Assembly: GCA_963705305.1 (NCBI GenBank)
Contig: OY970067.1
Span: 5,408,001-5,472,000 of the forward strand
DNA from: an uncultured Methylomirabilota bacterium
Lineage (GTDB): Bacteria > Methylomirabilota > Methylomirabilia > Methylomirabilales > 2-02-FULL-66-22
DNA length: 64,000 nt
Reading direction: 5' to 3'
Made by a program: the position numbers and the translations under genes. Position 1 is the stretch's first letter. Every line of letters begins with the position of its first letter. Below are positions 32,436-45,620 of this stretch, piece after piece. A model generated the notes under the pieces. That model made no database searches. It was not told where the DNA came from and saw only the letters and a list, made by a program, of their open reading frames with translations.

Positions 32436-34592
32436 TCAGACAGGAGGCAGAGGCGGCTGGGCCGCCTCACCGGCCGCCGCGCGCCGCTCCTGGTCGGCCA
32501 TGACCTGTAGGAACGCCTCTACGACCTTGGGGTCGAACGTCCGGCCGCTGCGCTCCAGGACGTACTCGATCACCTGCGGGTGGTCCATCCCCTGACGATA
32601 CGGGCGGTCGGAGCTCATCGCATCGACCACGTCGGCCACGCTGAAAATGCGGGCCCCCAGATCGATGGCCTCACCCTTCAGCCCGTCGGGATACCCGGCC
32701 CCGTCAAAGGCCTCGTGGTGCTGCAGCACAATGGGCAGCGCCTCGGCAAAGGCGGCAATGGGCTCCAGGATCCGCACTCCTATCCGGGTGTGGTCGCGCA
32801 TGATCCGGGCCTCATCCTCGGTCAGTTTCCCGGGCTTGTCCAGAATTTCCGGAGAGATCCCGATCTTGCCGATGTCGTGGAGCAGCCCTCCGCGACGCAG
32901 CACCTCCAGTTCCTTGATGCCCAGGCCCATGGCCAGGCCGATCTCCAGGGCCAGGTTGGTCACCCGCTCGGAATGACCCGCCGTCCAGGGGGATTTGGCG
33001 TCAATGGTCCGGGCCAGGGCGGTGAGGGTGCCCCAATTGAGCCGCTCCAGCTCGTCCAGCAGCCGGGCGTTGGACAGCCCAACCGCCACCTGATCGGCCA
33101 GCTGCCGGGCATGGGCCAGGTCGTCTTGATCGGGGGTCCGGATATTGAGGTAGCCGAGGATGATCACCGCGGAGATTCGCTGTTCCACAGCCACGGGCAG
33201 GATGGCGCAGGACTGGATGCCCCGGCGCGCATAGGCTAGAAGATAGCTGGGCATCTCCGGCTCTCCCTGAACCACGGTGCAAGGATGGGTGCGCAGGAAC
33301 GCCACATCCCCCGATTTCAGCAGGACCGGCTCCTCCCCCATTGCGCCCGCGGCGCCGCCGCTCCCAGAATAGAGCGTGGCCGCCCCGATCTCGGCCCGGG
33401 CGGGAAGCAGCACGCCGACCTGGTCGCAGGGACAGACGTCCTGCATCCGCGCCAGGATTGTCTCCACGATCTGCCTCACATCGAAAGAGGATAGTACTGC
33501 CTGCGTGATTCCTGTCAGAGCGGCCTGGGCGTGAAACTGCCGCCCCAGGCGCGAGGCCATGGTGTTGAAGGAGGTCGCCAGCTCTTCGAACTCGTCCCCG
33601 CTGTCGACGCTCACCCGGCTGTCGAAATCCCGTGTGGCGATCCGCCGTGTGCCCTCCTGCAATCTTTCCAGAGGGACGAGGCTGCGCCGGATCTGCCTGA
33701 TGCTCAGCAGGGTCACCACCAGAAAGGAGAGGATCACGAGGGGAAGAAAGAGGGCTCTGAAGTAGGCCAGAGGCGCCAGAACGTTTGCCCTCGACTCGCT
33801 GAGCACCACCGTCCACGAGGCCCCGGCGAACCTGGCCGGCATGAAGATCTGCCACGCGCTGGCCATGTAACGCTCTTCGCCATCCCTCCACTCGAACTGC
33901 ACCGCTTTCGAGCGGCTCCTCGTCTGGATGCCCCGCGTTAGTTCGGCAGGAGGAATCGGAATCGTGCACAGCAGAACAAGGTCCGAGGATTGGAGGACGC
34001 ACAGCTCGGTCAGGGGAGGTATCGGATTGTCTTCTCCCCCCCACAAGTAGTTGGAATTGACCTCTCCCAGCAGGATGGTTTCGCCGGTGCCGGCAGGATC
34101 GAGGGTCCTGGCCATGAAGACACGCGTCGGCTCTGGCGGGCGGGCCCGGGTGAATATGGCCGTTCTGCCCGAGCGGAGTTCGCGCCGCTCTTCGGGGGTG
34201 AGGTCCACAGGAGGCCGGATTTGACCCAGGAGGGGATCCGCCGCTCCCGTCCCATCCATCAGGGCCAGGCCGACGAACTGTTGGAGCATATGCTCCTCGA
34301 AGACATGGCCTGCGCGGGCTGTCCGTCCTCGCCGGCCCGGCGCCACGGTCTCCCCGAGGCCCTCCATCTGCGTCTCGAGGAACAGCAGCCGCTCGTGGAT
34401 GGCCATGCCCACTACCTTGCCAGCCTGGTGGAGCTGTTCCCGGGCCTGGTCCTGGAGCTGTCGCGTCACGCTGCCGTAGGACAGGACGGCCAGCGCCGTG
34501 ATGGGAAGAAGGGCGCAGCCTATAAACAGGAGGAAGATCCGCCGGGCCACCTTGCTGCGCAGAAACGCGGCATCGATCCTCACGAGGCGCAC
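32436..34592 (-). CDS. Membrane HAMP/GAF/HD-GYP phosphodiesterase
   Basis: Two TM segments, HAMP (DEFEELA..FN.M), GAF, LLHDIGK, HHE..DGAGYPDG, RPYR. Confidence 0.9.
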   Translation of the reverse strand: MRLVRIDAAFLRSKVARRIFLLFIGCALLPITALAVLSYGSVTRQLQDQAREQLHQAGKVVGMAIHERLLFLETQMEGLGETVAPGRRGRTARAGHVFEEHMLQQFVGLALMDGTGAADPLLGQIRPPVDLTPEERRELRSGRTAIFTRARPPEPTRVFMARTLDPAGTGETILLGEVNSNYLWGGEDNPIPPLTELCVLQSSDLVLLCTIPIPPAELTRGIQTRSRSKAVQFEWRDGEERYMASAWQIFMPARFAGASWTVVLSESRANVLAPLAYFRALFLPLVILSFLVVTLLSIRQIRRSLVPLERLQEGTRRIATRDFDSRVSVDSGDEFEELATSFNTMASRLGRQFHAQAALTGITQAVLSSFDVRQIVETILARMQDVCPCDQVGVLLPARAEIGAATLYSGSGGAAGAMGEEPVLLKSGDVAFLRTHPCTVVQGEPEMPSYLLAYARRGIQSCAILPVAVEQRISAVIILGYLNIRTPDQDDLAHARQLADQVAVGLSNARLLDELERLNWGTLTALARTIDAKSPWTAGHSERVTNLALEIGLAMGLGIKELEVLRRGGLLHDIGKIGISPEILDKPGKLTEDEARIMRDHTRIGVRILEPIAAFAEALPIVLQHHEAFDGAGYPDGLKGEAIDLGARIFSVADVVDAMSSDRPYRQGMDHPQVIEYVLERSGRTFDPKVVEAFLQVMADQERRAAAGEAAQPPLPPV

Positions 34593-34632
34593 CCTCTCCG
34601 AAAAACCACAGGCCAGACCAGCTGTGGCCGTT

Positions 34633-36238
34633 TTAGGCGGTCGCCCGCCGCAGGATCTGCCCGGGCCGGGCCCCGGTGTGCTGCCCGCCCTCCACGGCCG
34701 CGACGCCGTTCACCAGAACCATCTCTATGCCGGCGGGGTACCGGATCGGCTCTTCGTACGTGGCGGTATCGTTCACGCGATCGGGATCGAACAGAACCAC
34801 GTCGGCCTTGCAGCCCGGCCGCAGCCGGCCGCGATCGGCGATCCCCAGCCGGCGGCAGGGATCGGAGGTCATCTTGCGGATGGCGGTGGGAAGATCGAAC
34901 AGTCGCTCGTCGCGGGCGTACCGGCCCAGGATCCTGGCAAAGCTCCCGAAGGTGCGGGGGTGCGGGCGTCCCGTGGAGAGCGGCCCGTAGTGGGCCCGGC
35001 AGCCGGAATCGGAGCCGATCATCACGTAGGGCTTTTGCAGGATCAGCCGCAGGTTGTCTTCGCTCATGACGAAGTAGATGGCGTCCACCTCGGTCTTCTC
35101 GGCATGCAGGAGATCCAGGACGAACTCCAGCGTCTCCTGGCCGGCCAGGCGCGCCGCCGCGTCCACGCGGAGCCCCTGGTAGCGGCGATGCTGCGGCAGT
35201 GTGACCTCGGAGATCATCACCTGGCTCCACGCCCGTCCCTGCGGCCGGTCGCCGATCGCCTCCCGAATCCGGGCGCGCGCGTCTGGGTCCGCCAGGCGGG
35301 CGGTCTGCTCGGCCTTGTCTCCCTCCAGAACCCAGCGCGGCAGCATCGCCTGCAGTCCCGTGTTCGATGCCGTGTAGGGATAGCGATCGGCCGTCACGTC
35401 CACGCCGCGGCGCCGGGCCCCTTCGATCAGATCGAAGGCCCGCTGCAGCTTCCCCCAGTTTCCTTCGCCGGCGGTCTTGAGATGCGAGAATCTCGAGCGG
35501 AGCGTGCGCCGTCTCGGCGGCGGCGATGACCTCCCGGATCGCTTCCAGCAGGCCGTCCTCCTCGCTCCGCATATGGGTGGTCAGGAGGCCCCCTTTTCGC
35601 GCTGCGACAGCGGCCAGCGTCGCCAGCTCGCCGGGCGGCGAGAAACAGGCCGGCGAGTAGATCAGACCCGTCGACAGGCCCAGCGCCCCCTCGTCCATCC
35701 CCCGCTCCAGCGCCCCGATCATGGCCTCCAGCTCTGCCGGGGTGGCGGTCCGATCCGCCCCGCCCATGGCCGACCCGCGCAGGGTGTTGTGGCCGACCAG
35801 CAGGCCGAAGTTGATCGAGATGCCGGAATCCAGGAGGCGCCGGAAGTACTCCCCCACCTCGTGCCAGCCGTGGTCCAGGCCGTACACTTCGCGGACGATC
35901 CTGGACCGGTCCTCCCACCAGGGCCCCCAGATGGGGGCGGCCGCGTACCCGCAGTTTCCCCCGACCTCGCTGGTCACCCCTTGGAGGACGGCGCTCTCGG
36001 CCGTGGGGGTCAGGAGCAGGTGGTAATCGGAGTGGCCGTGGATGTCCACAAAGCCAGGGCAGGCCGCCAGCCCCTGCGCCTGGATGATCCGGCGGGCGGT
36101 CGCCCCTTCGGCCTCCTTGCCCACGGCCAGAATGCGATCCCCGTCGATGGCGATGTCGCCGGCCAGCGGGGGAGTCCCGCTGCCGTCGAAGATGGCGGCC
36201 CCGCGAATCAGGATATCCAGCTTGCCGGAGTGGCTCAC
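34633..36238 (-). pseudogene. N-acyl-D-amino-acid deacylase family amidohydrolase with a 1-bp frameshift at ~35489 (possible sequencing error)
   Basis: PGFVDIHGHSD, GNCG, HMRSE in one frame; removing one base gives EISHLKTAG and continues through D.YPY, GSD and HPRTFG. Confidence 0.85.
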
Positions 36239-37172: not shown

Positions 37173-38402
37173 CTATCCGATGTCCAGGCCTCGGAAGCTG
37201 CGACCGGGCACGATGCACCCCAGCACGCGGCGGCCGGCCGCCCCGGTCACAGCCGGAAGATTGCCTGCCCGGCCGGCGGCTGTCAAGTAGGCCAGCACCG
37301 CAAACGCCACTGCCTCGATGGCGCGGGCGGGGCAGCCCGCTTCTTCGCCCGGAACGATCCCGCAGCCCGGCAGGGATCGGGCCAGCTCCCGCATGAGATA
37401 CCCATTCCTGGCCCCCCCGCCCACGACCACCACCTCGCCGACCGCCGTCGCGGGAAAAACAAACGCCATGAGGTTCTCGGCCACCGAGGCGACCGTGAAG
37501 GCCGCCAGCGTCGCCAGGCCGTCCCGCGGCTCCCGGCCGGCGGCCGCGACACGGGCCCGGACCTCCGCCGCCAGTGCCGGCCCGAAGGCCTCGCGGCCGG
37601 TGGACTTGGGAGGCGGCCGGCGGATGAACGGGTGCCGGAGGAGGTCCTCTAGCAGCCGCGCGTCCACCCGGCCGCTCTCCGCCAGGCGTCCATCCTCGTC
37701 ATAGCCCGCTTCCGACAGGCGGGCCGCCCGCACGAACTCATCCAGCAGGACGTTTCCCGGTCCGGTGTCGAACCCGGTCACTTCGGCCGCGGCGGCCCCG
37801 GCGGGAAGGATCGTGACGTTGGCGATGCCGCCCAGGTTGAGGATCACGCGCCCGCGATCCGGGCGCCCGAACAGCAGGTGGTGCGCCAGCGGCGTCAGCG
37901 GAGCCCCCTCGCCGCCGGCGGCGAGGTCGCGCGGGCGAAAGTCCGCGATGGTCGTGATGCCCGTGCGCTCTGCGATCACCGCTGGCTGGCCGATCTGGAG
38001 GGTGGACCGCACGGCGTGGCGCCCCTCCTGCCGCGGAGCCGGCAGATGGTGGATCGTCTGGCCGTGCGATCCGATCAGGTCCACGCTCTCCAGCGGCAGA
38101 CCGGCCGTACGCGCGATGCCGATGGCGGCCTCGGCGAACAGCTCGCCCAGATAGGCGTTCAGGTGGCAGACCTCCTCCGTGGCGCCCGCGGTCGCCGCGG
38201 CCAGGATGCGCTCCCGCAGGCCCGCCGGAAACGGTGTCGTCTCGAACGCGAGAACGCGGATGGCGGGCCGGTCCCCGACGGGCTCCACCTCGACCAGCGC
38301 CGCATCCACGCCGTCGGCCGAGGTGCCGGACATCAGGCCGATGACCGTGAGGGCGTGAGAGCCGCGGGACGGTCTCGCCGGATCCGTACGCTGACCGATC
38401 AC
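37173..38402 (-). CDS. anmK: Anhydro-N-acetylmuramic acid kinase
   Basis: IGLMSGTSADGVD, GSHGQT, DFR..DLAAGGEGAPL, FDTGPGN, PKSTGRE. Confidence 0.95.
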   Translation of the reverse strand: MIGQRTDPARPSRGSHALTVIGLMSGTSADGVDAALVEVEPVGDRPAIRVLAFETTPFPAGLRERILAAATAGATEEVCHLNAYLGELFAEAAIGIARTAGLPLESVDLIGSHGQTIHHLPAPRQEGRHAVRSTLQIGQPAVIAERTGITTIADFRPRDLAAGGEGAPLTPLAHHLLFGRPDRGRVILNLGGIANVTILPAGAAAAEVTGFDTGPGNVLLDEFVRAARLSEAGYDEDGRLAESGRVDARLLEDLLRHPFIRRPPPKSTGREAFGPALAAEVRARVAAAGREPRDGLATLAAFTVASVAENLMAFVFPATAVGEVVVVGGGARNGYLMRELARSLPGCGIVPGEEAGCPARAIEAVAFAVLAYLTAAGRAGNLPAVTGAAGRRVLGCIVPGRSFRGLDIG

Positions 38403-38805
38403 AACAGACCTCCCCGGGAATTTCGACGAGCCCGTTCAGGATAAGCCGCCGCCCCACGCGGCGGGGGGGAATCACGCGGCACACCATACCATGCGGCCGC
38501 TGATCCGGACAAGCGCCGGAACGGCCGAGCGCAGCGGTGCGCGTTTCCCCGTTTCTCCGTCTCCCGTCTCCCCCTCGCCCCAGCGTTTTTTCGCCTCTGC
38601 GTTCTCTTCCTCGTCTCCCGTCTCCGGTCCCCCGTCTCCCGTAACGTGCGGGTTGCCTGGAACTCCCGATGATCTTGCCGGCGGACGGTCGCGGATGTTT
38701 ACCACGCACCCGGTTGTGGGTATGGTAGGATCGGTGCTGCCGGACTGCGCGACATTGCTAAGTGTTCGATTGCGCAGATTCTATCATTATCCATCGACCG
38801 CATAA

Positions 38806-39007
38806 CTCCCGGCCCCTCGGGCCGACCCGAGACGCTGCGCCCGCGGGTTAGCCGGGTCCGGTCGCCGCGGCCTCATAGGAATCAGGTGGCTTATAGATAG
38901 GCGCTCCGCGGCGCGACGTGCCCCCTTGGGGCAGCGGCGCCGGAGCAAGGCTGACCGGTTGTCGACGAGGCGCTAGGCGTCCGAGGGACGGTCCGGGGGG
39001 CCGGGAG
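38806..39007 (+). ncRNA. Unrecognised structured element, copy A
   Basis: Nested stems. Shares CGGGTCCGGTCGCCGCGG and CGCCGGAGCAAG with 40504-40711, with compensatory changes in the stems. Confidence 0.6.
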
Positions 39008-39086
39008 ATACCACCATAATCCCGGCCAACTCGCGAACTATTGGGGATTGGTGACTGGTCGCCGACCGCTGACCGGAGGAGCCGGC

Positions 39087-39614
39087 ATGCTGGACCATGA
39101 CAGGTACTACTTCACCTACGCCGACATCCACGAAACCATGCGCCGGCTGGCCGAGCAGCTGGAGCAGTCTTCCTTCACGCCGGATGTGATCGTGGCCATC
39201 GGCACCGGCGGCTTCATCCCCGCCCGGATCCTGCGGACCTACATCAAGAAGCCTATTCTCACCGTCGGGCTGGCCTACTACGACGCCGACAACAAGCCCA
39301 CCGGGATCCCCCAGAAAGTGCAGTGGATCGACGAGGTCCAGCAGAAACTGGAGGGGAAGCGCGTCCTCCTCGTGGACGAGGTGGACGACAGCCGCGCAAC
39401 CCTCGAATACTGCCTGCGAGAGCTGCTGGCCAGCCGGCCGCTGGAGGTCGCGGTCATGGTTCTCCACAACAAGCGCAAGCCCAAGCGGGGAAGCCTCCCG
39501 CCGGAGATCCGCCACTACTGGGCCGGCGAAGAGCTGGAGGACCACTGGATCTGCTATCCCTGGGACGCCATCGACATCGCGGCCCACGAGGCCTGGTCCC
39601 GGGGCGAGCGGTAG
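39087..39614 (+). CDS. Type I phosphoribosyltransferase (xanthine/hypoxanthine PRT-like)
   Basis: GGFIPARI, PRPP motif VLLVDEVDDSRATL, W..YPWD. Confidence 0.9.
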   Translation: MLDHDRYYFTYADIHETMRRLAEQLEQSSFTPDVIVAIGTGGFIPARILRTYIKKPILTVGLAYYDADNKPTGIPQKVQWIDEVQQKLEGKRVLLVDEVDDSRATLEYCLRELLASRPLEVAVMVLHNKRKPKRGSLPPEIRHYWAGEELEDHWICYPWDAIDIAAHEAWSRGER

Positions 39615-39706
39615 CGCGCTCGTTCTCCGATTTCACCCTTTCGAATCATCTACTTGCAAATTTCCAGTTCTTTTTCTCTCCCATCCGGCGAAGTTTCCAT
39701 TTTACA

Positions 39707-39724
39707 ACCAAACATATGTTTGGT
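39707..39724. promoter_or_regulatory. Perfect 18-bp palindrome, putative LexA/SOS operator
   Basis: ACCAAACATATGTTTGGT directly after TTTACA (-35-like) and 12 nt before the ATG. Core AAAC-N4-GTTT resembles GAAC-N4-GTTC boxes. Confidence 0.6.
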
Positions 39725-39735
39725 ATTTGTGCTCC

Positions 39736-40491
39736 ATGGCCTGGGTGGGTGCCGTCACCGAAGAGAGAGGTCGTGGTCTCCTGGGCGCCGTGAGCTCTCT
39801 GGCGGAAGGGACCTCGCCGGAACTGGCGAGAGACCGCAAAGGGGTGCGGGCGGGTCTGTCCCTGCTGGCCGGTCCCCCGTTCATCCTGGATTTGGGCACT
39901 ACCCTGGCCGGCCGGGCCGCCCTTGGCGGCCTTATGGTCCTGTACGTGGACGGGGCCAACGCCTTCGACCCCTATATCCTCTCGCGCCTCGCTCGGGAGG
40001 CCGGCCAGCCTCCCGAGCCACTGCTGCGGCGCCTGCACCTCTCCAGGGCCTTCACCTGCCACCAGCTCGAGACCCTCATCGTGGAGCGCCTGCCCGCGGC
40101 CATCCTGCACTACCGCCCGGGCCTGGTGGTGATCTCTGGCTGGAGCCACCTGTTTCACGACGAGAACGTTCCCACGCGCGAGGCGCTCCGCCTGCTCCAG
40201 AACACCGCGCGACGGATCCGGTCGCTCGCCGAGGCCGGCCAGCCGATCCTGGCCACCCATCCCGACGAGCCGGCCACGCCGCGGCTTCAGCCCCTCGGCG
40301 AGATTCTGGCCCGCGCCGCCGACGGCGTCCTTCGTCTGCGCGAGGAGGACGGCCTGATCCTGGCCGTCCAGGAAAAGCCGCCGGACCCGGACGCCCGCTC
40401 GCTGGTCCTTTCGCCGGAAGACTGCCGGCTGTGGATCCACGGCCGCCATTACCAGGAATTGCCGGCGGCGTACCCATGGTCGGGGCGGTGA
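39736..40491 (+). CDS. Inactivated RecA/RadA-like protein
   Basis: VLYVDGANAFDPY and LSRAFTCHQL motifs; no intact Walker A. Confidence 0.75.
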   Translation: MAWVGAVTEERGRGLLGAVSSLAEGTSPELARDRKGVRAGLSLLAGPPFILDLGTTLAGRAALGGLMVLYVDGANAFDPYILSRLAREAGQPPEPLLRRLHLSRAFTCHQLETLIVERLPAAILHYRPGLVVISGWSHLFHDENVPTREALRLLQNTARRIRSLAEAGQPILATHPDEPATPRLQPLGEILARAADGVLRLREEDGLILAVQEKPPDPDARSLVLSPEDCRLWIHGRHYQELPAAYPWSGR

Positions 40492-40503
40492 GGGACGAGC
40501 TTT

Positions 40504-40711
40504 CCGCAATGCCCCCGGGGTCGCCCTGACACGCTGGCCCCGCGGGGACGGTCGGGTCCGGTCGCCGCGGAGACTAAGGTCCCGACGTGATTCCCAGCAT
40601 TGCCCCACGGCGCGGCGTGCCCCATCCCCTCGGGGCAGCGCCGCCGGAGCAAGACCGTCCCGGCAACGTCGGAGGCCAGCAGTAGGAAGGGCGGCCCCGG
40701 GGGCATTGCGG
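40504..40711 (+). ncRNA. Unrecognised structured element, copy B
   Basis: 24-bp closing stem with one G-U; inner stems GCTGGCC/GGCCAGC and GGGACGGTC/GACCGTCCC; core shared with copy A. Confidence 0.6.
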
Positions 40712-40740
40712 TTGTCCTTGGAAGTGATGAAGGAAAAGTC

Positions 40741-41094
40741 ATGGGACGTACCGTCGCGCCGTTCAGCCAGGTCCTGGAGGCCGAGTTCGAGAGCTGGAGC
40801 AAGTTCCGCCGCGCCCTGCGCCGGGAGGACCAGGAGGCCTTCGACCGGCTCTTTGCCGCCGCCAAGTACCACGTGGCCGCCATGGTCTACGCCTCGCGCC
40901 TGACCCCTCTGGAGGCCATCCTCATGGGCATCCTGGTGGAGCACCAGAAGACCATCGGCCGGCTTGCGACCCGGGTCCGGGATCTGGAGGCGGCGGTCCG
41001 GCCCCCGCTTGTGCTGACCACGCCGGATGGGCAGCTGTCAGCGGTCAGTGGTCAGCAGTCAGCCCGTGAACATCCTCCGGTCGTTGATGGCTGA
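40741..41094 (+). CDS. Small helical protein of the family normally encoded with PolB2-type polymerases (arCOG07300-like)
   Basis: MGRTV..F.......W.KFRRALRREDQEAFDRLF..A..H. Confidence 0.75.
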   Translation: MGRTVAPFSQVLEAEFESWSKFRRALRREDQEAFDRLFAAAKYHVAAMVYASRLTPLEAILMGILVEHQKTIGRLATRVRDLEAAVRPPLVLTTPDGQLSAVSGQQSAREHPPVVDG

Positions 41095-41115
41095 TAGCTG
41101 AAGGCTGAACGCCCC

Positions 41116-42249
41116 ATGGATACCTTGTTTTCCGAACCGCAATCACCGGCCAAAGGCATCGAGCGTCTGGCGCGCGAGGCGGACCCGCTGCTCTCCAAGC
41201 GCGCCGCCACGTATCTCGGCCTGGAGGTCCGATCGGTCCTCAATCGCTGCTCCAGCGACCGCATGCCCTTCGCCTGGACCATCAATCCCTATCGGGGATG
41301 CGAGTACGGCTGCCGGTACTGCTATGCCCGCTACACCCACGAGTTCATGGGCCTCACGCAGTGGCAGGAGTTCGAGGAAAAGATTTACGTCAAGCGGGAT
41401 GCGGCCCGGATCCTGGCGCGCGAGCTGTCCCCCCGGCGCCTGGCCGGCCAGCGCATCGCCCTGGGGACCGCCACCGATCCCTACCAGCCGGCAGAGCGGC
41501 GCTACCGCGTGACGCGCAGCCTGCTGGAGGTCATGGCGCGGGCCCGCGACCTTCGCCTCTCCATCACCACCAAGAGCGATCTCGTCGTGCGCGACCTGGA
41601 CCTCCTCCGGCGGATCGCCGAACAGAGCAGCCTGCATGTCCACTTCACCGTCACCGCCCTCGACCGCCGCCTGGCGCGGATCCTGGAATTCCGCGCCCCC
41701 ACGCCGGACCTGCGCCTCAACGCCCTGCGGCGGCTGCGCGCGGCGGGAATCGCCGCCGGCGTCACCATCTCCCCGATCCTCCCGGACATCACCGACAGCC
41801 GGGCCAGCCTGGAGGCCGTCGTCGTCGTCGCCAAGGCGCACGACGCCAGCCACGTCTCCGCCAGCGTCCTGTTCCTCAAGCCGGCCGCCCAGCAGGCCTT
41901 CTTCCCGTTCCTGGCGCGTCACTTCCCCCATCTCGCCGCTCGGTACAGGGCCCGCTTCACCCGCTCGGCCTTCCTGGACCGGGGGTACAAGGACCGCATC
42001 TCACGGCTCGTGGCAGAGCTGAAGGCGAAGCACGGCTTCTCCGAGGCCAGCCACGACGAGCCCCCCACCGCCCTGCACGAGCCCGAGCCGGAACAGCTCT
42101 CCCTGCTCCAGACCGAATCCCCCGCAGGGAGAATCCTGCCCGTCGGCGCCCCTCCCGTGCGGCATCCACGGCCGGATGCCCAGACACGGCCGCAACTCTG
42201 TCCGCCCCCAATCAGAAGAGCCCGCCCCGGCAAAGAGGCCTGTCAATGA
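41116..42249 (+). CDS. Radical SAM protein, SplB/Rv2578c-like DNA-repair-associated family
   Basis: INPYRGCEYGCRYCYAR, GTATDPYQPAE, ITTKS. Confidence 0.9.
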   Translation: MDTLFSEPQSPAKGIERLAREADPLLSKRAATYLGLEVRSVLNRCSSDRMPFAWTINPYRGCEYGCRYCYARYTHEFMGLTQWQEFEEKIYVKRDAARILARELSPRRLAGQRIALGTATDPYQPAERRYRVTRSLLEVMARARDLRLSITTKSDLVVRDLDLLRRIAEQSSLHVHFTVTALDRRLARILEFRAPTPDLRLNALRRLRAAGIAAGVTISPILPDITDSRASLEAVVVVAKAHDASHVSASVLFLKPAAQQAFFPFLARHFPHLAARYRARFTRSAFLDRGYKDRISRLVAELKAKHGFSEASHDEPPTALHEPEPEQLSLLQTESPAGRILPVGAPPVRHPRPDAQTRPQLCPPPIRRARPGKEACQ

Positions 42250-42346: not shown

Positions 42347-42589
42347 ATGCCGACGATCACACTCAAGAATATCCCCGACAAATTGTACGAACGGCTGAAA
42401 CAGAGCGCCGCCGAGCACCGACGCAGCCTCAACAGCGAGATGATCGTCCGGCTCGAGCAGGCGGTTCTGAGTGCGCGGATCGAGCCTGACGCGTATCTCG
42501 CCAGGGTTGATGCGCGACGCAGGCAGTTGGCCCTTCCCCCGCTGACCGAGCGACGTTTGAAGACGATCAAGACCGCGGGGCGGCCATGA
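42347..42589 (+). CDS. Arc/FitA-like ribbon-helix-helix antitoxin
   Basis: MPTITLKNIPDKLYERLK..A..HRRSLNSE; overlaps the toxin start. Confidence 0.88.
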   Translation: MPTITLKNIPDKLYERLKQSAAEHRRSLNSEMIVRLEQAVLSARIEPDAYLARVDARRRQLALPPLTERRLKTIKTAGRP

Positions 42590-42993
42590 TCGTCGCTGAC
42601 ACCAACATGGTGGCCTACCTTCTCTTGGGAGGGGAAAAGACCCAAGGCGCGCGTTTGGCCTTCCGCAAGGATCCGGCATGGGCTGCCCCCCTTCTCTGGC
42701 GGAGTGAATTCCGTAACGTCCTGGCGACGTACCTGCGTCGCGGGAGGCTAAGCCTTTCCGAGGCAATCGAGGTAATGGGGGATGCCGAGACACTCTTCCG
42801 TGGCGCCGAGTACAGCGTGGACTCCGACCAGGTGCTTAAGCTCGCCTCCGAATCGGGCTGCTCGGCCTACGACTGCGAATTCGTTGCCCTGGCCCAACAG
42901 CTCGACGTGCCCCTGCTCACCTCGGACGCAGAGATCTTGAAGGAGTTCCCGCAGACGGCAACCTCGCTAGAGGCCTTCAGTAAGACACGCTAG
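42586..42993 (+). CDS. vapC: VapC family PIN-domain toxin
   Basis: IVADTN, SEF.NV, SAYDCEFVALA, L.TSD. Confidence 0.9.
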   Translation: MIVADTNMVAYLLLGGEKTQGARLAFRKDPAWAAPLLWRSEFRNVLATYLRRGRLSLSEAIEVMGDAETLFRGAEYSVDSDQVLKLASESGCSAYDCEFVALAQQLDVPLLTSDAEILKEFPQTATSLEAFSKTR

Positions 42994-43275
42994 GAGGCTT
43001 TTCGTCGCACCCGCCCTGTCGCGCCCACCCCTGACACTGCCGCCGGGTTGAGAGTAGCGTTGGGCGACTTCGGCGCTCGTCCGGTCCGTCCAGGGGAAGG
43101 CAGTCGGATGAGAGTATTTGAAACGACGGCGCACGTCGCACAGTCCGCGGTCACCCTTGCGCGAGGGGATCCCCTCCACTCCGCGGTCCCGCACTCTTTC
43201 GCACGCCCTTCCCCATCGGGACTTCGAGCAACCCCTACGACTCCCGCCCCTCCCCCTGCGCCCTTCGCTGGCTCA

Positions 43276-43476
43276 TCACGAACCACCTATCATACGTTCC
43301 GGCATTCAGGAGTTTATCCCGCATTATGCGCGACCACTCATGTGCTGGAAGCCGGGTATGACATTCGCACCGTGCAGGAACTGCTCGGACATCAGGATGT
43401 GCGAACCACCATGATCTACACCCATGTCCTGAATCGCGGAGGCAGGGGCGTTCGCAGTCCGGCTGACACGCTGTGA
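43276..43476 (+). pseudogene. intI: Integron integrase C-terminal remnant
   Basis: HTFRHS-[insert][44 protein letters not shown]. The rest of the gene is absent. Confidence 0.88.
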
Positions 43477-44528: not shown

Positions 44529-45620
44529 GGGACGCTGGTAAGAAAATAAATATACACTTGGTGTATGTTGTGGTATAGAGAGACGTATGCCTAGATTGGC
44601 TCGTCTTGACGCGCCCGGTGCTTTGCACCACATCATAATCCGGGGGATAGATCGTCGGAAGATATTCCTGAGCGGGAAGGATTACGAAGACTTTCTGGAG
44701 CGTCTCGCAAGTCTTCTTCCGGAGACGAAAACTGCGTGCTATGCGTGGGCCTTATTACCGAACCACGCCCACCTTCTCCTTTGCTCGGGGGCGGTCCCAC
44801 TTGCCCGCCTGATGAGCAGGCTGCTTACCGGCTATGCGGTCGGTTTCAACCGCCGGTACAAGCGCCATGGGCATCTCTTCCAGAATCGGTACAAGTCGAT
44901 CATCTGTCAGGAAGATGTCTATCTGAGAGAATTGGTTCGCTATATTCACTTGAACCACCTCAGGGCCCGCATAGTCGCTGACGTTGCTGAACTGAATGGC
45001 TATTCCTATACCGGCCACAGCGCATTGATGGGGAGGGCGGACAGGCCGTGGCAGGACGCGGGGTACGTGCTTAAGTATTTTGGGGAAACGGTTCGAAGGG
45101 CGAGAAAGGCCTACCTTGCGCATCTCGAGGAAGGAATTGAGCAAGGGCGGCGAGAGGACTTGACGGGCGGTGGATTGATACGGAGTCTTGGGGGGTGGTC
45201 GGAGGCAAAGAAACTCGGAGGCAAGGGAAGAGATCACGTCATGAGCGACGAACGTATTCTGGGGGATACGGACTTTGTGGATTCAGTGCTTTCCCGGGCA
45301 GGAGAAGCATGTGAGCGGCGATATGAGCTGAAGCGACGTGGGTATGATTTGGAACGGATTGCCGGGAGGGTGGCGGAAATCTGTGGTATGGAAGAGAATG
45401 AGGTGTTTTCAAAGGGACGTCAGAAGGAAAAAGTGAGGGCCAGGAGCCTTCTCTGTTATTGGGCGGCCGGCGAGGCGGGGATATCGCTCAGGGCCTTGGC
45501 GAAACGATTGGGGATCAGCGCTCCAGGGGTTGGGTACGCGGTTGCAAGAGGAGAGGCCATGGTCCGGGAGAATCGCTTTGAGTTGATCCAGTGATTTAAT
45601 TACTTTCTTACGAGCGTCCC
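44529..45620 (+). mobile_element. RAYT-like HUH transposase element 2 with 21-bp imperfect TIRs
   Basis: GGGACGCTGGTAAGAAAATAA (44529-44549) versus the reverse complement of 45600-45620, 2 mismatches; lower GC than the host. Confidence 0.75.
44587..45594 (+). CDS. REP-associated tyrosine transposase-like protein with C-terminal HTH
   Basis: NHAH, GHLFQNRYKS, RYIHLN. Confidence 0.9.
   Translation: MPRLARLDAPGALHHIIIRGIDRRKIFLSGKDYEDFLERLASLLPETKTACYAWALLPNHAHLLLCSGAVPLARLMSRLLTGYAVGFNRRYKRHGHLFQNRYKSIICQEDVYLRELVRYIHLNHLRARIVADVAELNGYSYTGHSALMGRADRPWQDAGYVLKYFGETVRRARKAYLAHLEEGIEQGRREDLTGGGLIRSLGGWSEAKKLGGKGRDHVMSDERILGDTDFVDSVLSRAGEACERRYELKRRGYDLERIAGRVAEICGMEENEVFSKGRQKEKVRARSLLCYWAAGEAGISLRALAKRLGISAPGVGYAVARGEAMVRENRFELIQ

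Follow-up and report, generated by a model that had tools for sequence, protein, structure and literature searches.

The window analysed here is a 64,000-nt stretch of the genome designated G000 (G000:5408001-5472000). In it, two structured elements, A and B, sit between genes and contain no transposase (Table 1). The gene neighbouring A has no close ortholog in the genus, the best candidates reaching 25-32% identity. The product of the gene upstream of B itself matches no Pfam or NCBIfam profile, and the profile carried by some of its homologs, PF08423, is Rad51; among 120 homologs of the gene beside B, two are named, as "candidate division NC10" and "Candidatus Methylomirabilis", which makes membership of the host in that group likely. 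A search of 38400-41200 for sigma-70-type promoters returned none. Elsewhere in the window, an amidohydrolase-like gene on the minus strand at 34580-36238 is apparently split over two frames by a frameshift or a sequencing error, and a ribbon-helix-helix and PIN gene pair at 42347-42993 (+) forms a toxin-antitoxin module of the VapBC/FitAB type. An ORF end at 43048-43476 (-), which from its translation we take to resemble the C-terminus of an integron integrase, precedes short cassette-like genes at 43.5-47 kb, and a Y1_Tnp/RAYT-like gene lying below the NCBIfam cut-off is found at 44587-45594 (+).

Table 1. Copies A and B and neighbouring features, in window coordinates
Feature	Position	Strand	Basis
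Copy A, full extent (~286 nt); decayed ends, left end of C-TNA-G subtype	38758..39043 (right boundary approximate)	+	Alignment to intact copy
A, closed rod of outer covarying stems (extent in first-pass annotation)	38806..39007	+	Fold
A, conserved core: bulged stem, GGG/GCAA loop, three-way junction, side hairpin	38828..38982	+	Model R1, 149.7 bits (A is a seed member)
A, variable 35-nt loop closed by 8-bp stem	38871..38905	+	
Phosphoribosyltransferase gene downstream of A	39087..39614	+	Profile match
Palindrome ahead of B's operon, like that upstream of lexA; probable LexA box	39707..39724	.	Sequence pattern
Gene upstream of B	39727..40491	+	Some homologs carry Pfam PF08423
Copy B (~229 nt), beginning at stop codon of upstream gene	40491..40719	+	Fold
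B, conserved core	40527..40686	+	Model R1, 105.8 bits (B is a seed member)
B, variable 34-nt loop	40571..40604	+	

The first-pass annotation of this DNA had placed B inside a probable SOS operon. The palindrome used for comparison lies upstream of lexA at G000:2498100, and, of 12 relative loci, 10 have a similar LexA-type box; the same pattern found no such box upstream of recA. With a lexA-like box before the operon, control by LexA and the SOS label are plausible. B, however, is not a conserved part of the operon: by eye, it is missing at the orthologous site in all ten relatives that have both flanking genes, which marks it as an insertion rather than an operon component and led us to reject an SOS role for it. 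The genome G020 carries a copy of the same family one gene beyond the site of B. At the site where G000 has B, G013 (L381) carries a copy of a second MITE-like family, which has CAGGCTGCT..AAAAAG ends and is also present at G000:788530-788700, G000:3692330-3692500 and many other places.

A and B share an 18-mer (38853-38870 and 40553-40570) and a 12-mer (38938-38949 and 40642-40653) exactly as first described, and the loop lengths of 35 and 34 nt are likewise exact. The two loops had been called unrelated, and an ungapped comparison bears this out, with 10 of 34 positions shared, which is near chance; by eye, the B loop resembles a subfamily of 33-34-nt loops in relatives and metagenomes. Both copies are strongly structured (z -6.4 for A and -8.5 for B, with none of 200 dinucleotide shuffles folding as well), and in each, long stems close the element and the GGG/GCAA internal loop is present. 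The proposed three-way junction appears in the single-sequence fold of B and in the consensus fold of the family, but the minimum-energy fold of A pairs this region differently. The original extent of about 205 nt proved too short, since A reaches approximately 38758-39043, its left 85 nt aligning with an intact TNA-type copy at G000:1802454-1802755, and intact copies measure about 268 nt.

Comparison with Rfam 15 identified no known riboswitch, ribozyme or sRNA family at the gathering threshold, either in the window or at eight loci searched at E up to 5, where two weak matches only (E 1.2 and 1.4) fell below the gathering score. Literature searches, whose coverage largely excluded subscription papers, found no description of the family. 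The element is real, but the initial count of two copies was too low. BLAST and nhmmer located a dozen or more additional copies in G000, and a core covariance model, R1, built from 17 seed sequences that include A and B, gave 16 hits in this genome. Hits to R1 were obtained in 14 of 20 same-genus genomes and in none of 143 genomes from other families of the phylum; BLAST with A as query found matches in 17 of 20 same-genus genomes compared with none of 20 outside genomes. A tight sequence pattern recovered 118 metagenome loci and no viral contigs, and R1 scored 98 matches at E < 1e-10 in the 100 loci tested. Among the metagenome loci of at least 2 kb, 58 of 63 have a protein match in G000, with a median identity of 69%, so that their source organisms fit close kin of G000. 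The first pattern used for collection was too loose: of its genome hits, numbering at least 118, only one among those listed (L098) was scored by the model, as were none of its 22 viral hits. L098, the sole hit in another phylum, lies on a 4.9-kb contig as the one copy of its genome, and none of 40 relatives carries a copy; misbinning is thus likely, and the hit does not establish a wider spread. These sequences constitute a small non-coding MITE family restricted to one genus of NC10 (Methylomirabilota), with a core G+C content of 72-74%. For the analyses that follow, 186 raw pattern matches were reduced to 135 by a downstream-motif filter and deduplication, and both ends were called in 88 of these; dereplication at loops at least 80% alike reduced sets of 67, 88 and 88 to 37, 52 and 53 elements, respectively.

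Intact members have a length mode of 268 nt, with a second cluster 19-22 nt longer in which a small GGGTACC hairpin module replaces a bulge or the tip of the side hairpin. CTAG is found at both ends in 42 of the 88 elements with both ends called, and in 42 of 135 copies the termini are inverted repeats that pair at 11 or more of 16 letters, each end carrying TA. One type of end matches a truncated transposase gene at G000:533705; intact copies of this type are present in G020 (four) and G001 (one) and are assigned to IS630 by NCBIfam NF033545, with 255 bits where the cut-off is 100. The truncated element itself (G000:533705-534325) has an intact left end and stops at a convergent gene for an ATPase, in which a Walker A motif is present. 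A second IS630 type accounts for nine Pfam hits in G000, eight of which were read, and other IS630 elements of G000, G010 and G020 provide three further end types, four in total. G020 is rich in insertion sequences generally, with 64 DDE_3 and 27 IS110 matches. Of 12 G000 copies, six resemble IS630 ends of the L404/L408, L407 and L026 types on one side or both, with 19-25 of 30 letters matching, and another two score 19 of 30, giving eight of 12 at 19-25, compared with 13-17 in 299 of 300 random windows. Over the 88 elements the best end match centres on 11 of 17 letters versus 6-7 at 2744 genomic CTAG sites, the former figure being biased upward by the templates used to call ends.

Copies of the C-TNA-G subtype show evidence of a 3-bp target duplication, as the left and right 3-mers are identical in 18 of 25 copies where 10.2 would be expected; in the CTAG subtypes, duplication of TA and of CTAG can be told apart only with an exact empty site. 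The 3-bp duplication of the TNA subtype departs from the pattern described for IS630 elements, in which TA is duplicated (PMC2170065). Many copies begin a few bases from the end of the upstream gene, which fits TAG or TAA stop codons lying within the target. The family has apparently been moved by IS630-type transposases. A and B themselves match IS630 ends at 16 + 16 and 13 + 15 of 30 letters, within the background of random windows, and no IS630-like end is recognizable in B. Their membership in the family therefore rests on the core and, for A, also on the alignment to the intact copy. Judged by sequence, A and B are old, worn MITE copies whose own ends have decayed. The suggestion in the first-pass annotation of a non-autonomous mobile element with a conserved fold is supported by the inverted ends and their match to IS630, by duplication of the target, by patchy occurrence and by the covariation found here.

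Conservation of the fold is evident across the family. A plain MAFFT alignment (33 sequences) shows changes on both sides at 24 of 54 pairs, with 96.5% of cells paired; none of 500 shuffles reaches this, and slid partners give 8-11 pairs. A model-fitted alignment of 86 distinct rows agrees, with 15 of 40 pairs changing on both sides. These controls leave relatedness in, and the search pattern included the loop-closing stem. Almost no variation is seen in the bulges or in the internal loop. The bias toward G-U mismatches on the plus strand, first noted in A and B, is true of the whole family, in which 32 chosen stem pairs, scored over 33 sequences, show 60 G.T versus 17 A.C. Under RNA energies 59 of 87 elements favour the same strand for folding, a number that rises to 81 of 87 under DNA energies. 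Orientation was called for 69 copies with a crude gene caller: 54 lie between co-directional genes (31 sense and 23 antisense), 10 between convergent genes and five between divergent genes. Because copies face both ways in transcripts, a purely RNA-level reason for a one-strand fold is weakened, and the mixed orientation together with the strand energies makes both RNA and single-stranded DNA possible as the form that matters.

The interior also behaves as a unit apart from the ends. In 55 close pairs, which are not independent and whose binning favours low values outside the loop, the change rate is 0.091 in the loop, 0.044 in the ends and 0.029 in the core; copies were collected through the core, so its conservation is partly built in. 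The core is common to at least four end types. Loops at least 80% alike were found in 102 pairs, and in 11 of these the surrounding shells are less than 65% alike, nine of them involving L348. In L348, the two arms of an L349-type shell enclose a loop and core of the L275 family; L240 is the converse chimera, a near-identical shell with a different loop. These two elements indicate swapping of the core between shells, though chimeric assembly of single contigs is a possible source. The interior is a conserved, exchangeable, one-strand fold. Separately, a 24-26-nt hairpin module starting with GGGTACC, recorded at G000:242304, G000:788569, G000:3692366 and about 40 more places, replaces fixed bulges in this family and is also found inside the second repeat family; the genome has 45 matches to the pattern.

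The variable loop is held to a narrow range of lengths. Its 122 distinct sequences measure 33 nt (n = 11), 34 nt (n = 18), 35 nt (n = 88) or 36 nt (n = 5); the pattern used on metagenomes admitted 33-38 nt and could therefore miss shorter loops there. When 3-120 nt were permitted, all 13 loops in G000 measured 34-36 nt and 24 of 31 in relatives measured 33-36 nt, the other seven being 15-16-nt inner hairpins of a shorter subfamily. A 239-nt subfamily (L015, L358-L362) lacks the side hairpin and keeps the 35-nt spacing between the same stem motifs, filled with short hairpins; it may represent the ancestral form of the loop. Among 52 dereplicated loops the mean identity is 37% (27.5% for random sequences), compared with 91.5% in the adjoining stem region, and the loop signature is weak, consisting of G at positions 8-9, C at 13 (88%) and G or A at 14. 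No fold was detected within the 52 loops (mean z 0.05). A 2-bp pairing signal between positions 3-4 and 14-15 beat 200 column shuffles, but it is not tree-corrected and faded when 3 or 4 bp were demanded (10 and 56 of 200 shuffles). Changes in the loop are scattered and rich in transitions (304 of 595), and unrelated sites can hold near-identical loops, whose divergence is gradual. Such gradual, scattered point changes indicate that the loop drifts and is not replaced in the manner of a spacer. Neutral drift does not explain the fixed length.

The constant scaffold and variable loop had led the first-pass annotation to propose a guide or antisense RNA, a proposal that did not hold up. The guides in bridge RNAs are described as having been revealed by covariation of the loops over thousands of pairs (PMC11208160); our tests used 37-53 elements, far fewer, and are blind to unsampled phages. 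Within that range, the loop does not covary with the insertion target (observed value reached by 42 of 100 shuffles with 37 elements and 77 of 300 with 53) or with the donor/end junction (14 of 100 and 250 of 300, respectively), and no covariation with flanks exceeded shuffles. Among eight regions tested, two arm regions were borderline (reached by 2 and 5 of 100 shuffles), which we attribute to shared descent. A search of G000 for loop targets, contiguous or split 8+8, returned nothing beyond shuffles: the best off-element loop scores resemble those of shuffles (mean 29.9 versus 28.4 bits) except for one match to another copy. The loops matched nothing in phage and plasmid records. The core was absent from 67 IS110, Y1 and IS630 loci, 22 of them IS110 (best E 0.18), and motif hits near Y1 loci were few, consisting of single short matches. 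A bridge, seek or TIGR-style guide was rejected for lack of covariation, of a split target and of the core at IS110 loci, and a CRISPR-like spacer carrier was rejected given the gradual point changes, the absence of phage or plasmid matches and the absence of the core in viral contigs. The loop shows no sign of guide action.

We consider it probable that A and B are old copies of a MITE with ends moved by IS630 transposases, a fold kept in transcripts, a core homogenized by conversion and a loop left free to drift. The transposases would act in trans, binding the ends and placing the element at CTAG or C-TNA-G sites. They would need the ends only, as in ISY100, where mini-transposons with 30 bp of each end are described as working as well as the full element (PMC2170065), and the loop would not choose the insertion site. 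The fold would be kept since copies often lie in transcripts, the rod being either tolerated or used as a signal for nuclease processing or stability, as in Correia, ERIC and bcr1 elements, with RUP as a further analogy for selection on the fold; precedents for RNase processing of folded MITE transcripts have been described (PMC2229807, PMC3049150, PMC3184786). Gene conversion among copies would spread and homogenize the core. The 33-36-nt loop would serve as an unpaired spacer, free to change its letters but constrained in length and at a few positions by junction geometry or by that of a bound protein.

Since IS630 needs only the ends, and the interior changes more slowly than the ends, occurs in four end types and is swapped whole, a selective force other than transposition would appear to act on it. 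The same behaviour, together with a near-constant length across 122 distinct loops, their low identity beside a conserved stem and the favoured bases at positions 13 and 14, would also suit a core that is an independent, exchangeable RNA or single-stranded-DNA device hitchhiking in several IS630 MITE shells. A trans-acting protein would read its scaffold and be shown the fixed-length, free-sequence loop as a decoy or as a guide, with targets outside the data searched, such as the uncultured phages of the host, or transcripts paired imperfectly. We regard this as unlikely given that the loop covaries with neither flanks, target site nor end junction, finds no target in G000, phages or plasmids, and diverges gradually between near-identical copies at unrelated sites, and given that the core is absent from the 67 transposase loci. 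The fold might instead matter as single-stranded DNA, the bulged stem being a site for an HUH (Y1/RAYT) or tyrosine enzyme, with interiors swapped at the stem and GGGTACC modules inserted at fixed bulges. The more consistent strand asymmetry under DNA energies, the lack of a strong bias in orientation to transcription, the replacement of the same bulges by hairpin modules in many copies, the L348 breakpoints at paired positions (by eye) and the 16 Y1_Tnp matches in G000 are in keeping with such a site. Against this, no Y1 locus has the core, motif hits near those loci are single and short, and ordinary gene conversion at the edges of homology also yields symmetric breakpoints; this account too seems improbable to us.

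It could also be argued that nothing inside the element is selected, and that template switching at inverted repeats produces the compensating changes while conversion homogenizes the core and the loop drifts. The scattered, transition-rich loop changes, the existence of conversion-like chimeras and the inflation of core conservation by collection through the core are all compatible with this. Correction of palindromes should, however, erase bulges, yet these and the internal loop hardly vary; the variable loop is near sequence saturation, yet its length varies by only 3 nt; and G.T exceeds A.C by 60 to 17. We therefore consider an unselected interior very unlikely. Whichever force maintains the interior, the family, with more than 120 natural loop variants, lends itself to testing why elaborate folds persist in bacterial MITEs. 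If it were true that a protein reads the loop, the core would be a new guide scaffold, and a new kind of mobile one; on present evidence it belongs to an unusual but lineage-restricted repeat.

A comparison with described systems shows both likenesses and differences. One such system is RUP, a MITE proposed to be moved by IS630-Spn1 (PMC2229807, PMC3049150), which is likewise a small, non-coding, dispersed repeat with ends like those of a resident IS630 and a tight fold with paired ends. As described in those sources, RUP is a simple element of 107 bp, whereas the A/B family is G+C-rich, measures about 268 nt and contains a three-way junction and a variable loop of fixed length; also unlike RUP, it has one core common to at least four end types. 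The Correia/NEMIS and ERIC elements resemble it in their TA termini, long stem-loop and position beside genes (PMC2229807, PMC10969869), and processing of their transcripts by RNase III or RNase E has been described in the same papers. Those elements are A+T-rich and under 200 bp, features reported as typical of MITEs (PMC2229807) rather than strict; the A/B family differs from them in its G+C-rich core, its length mode of 268 nt and its presence in both orientations in transcripts. The bcr1 repeat of Bacillus is likewise mobile and keeps a branched fold through compensating changes, but is described as about 155 bp long, flanked by 5-bp direct repeats and transcribed, and a variable loop of fixed length is not among the features described (PMC3184786). 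The bridge RNA of IS110 also joins a conserved scaffold to a loop of low conservation; it is described as lying in the IS110 end and as carrying two internal loops whose sequences covary with those of target and donor (PMC11208160), whereas the A/B family has one terminal loop, no such covariation and no link to IS110 loci. Relative to known MITEs, then, the family is unusual in possessing a conserved, covarying and exchanged interior with a loop of near-fixed length.
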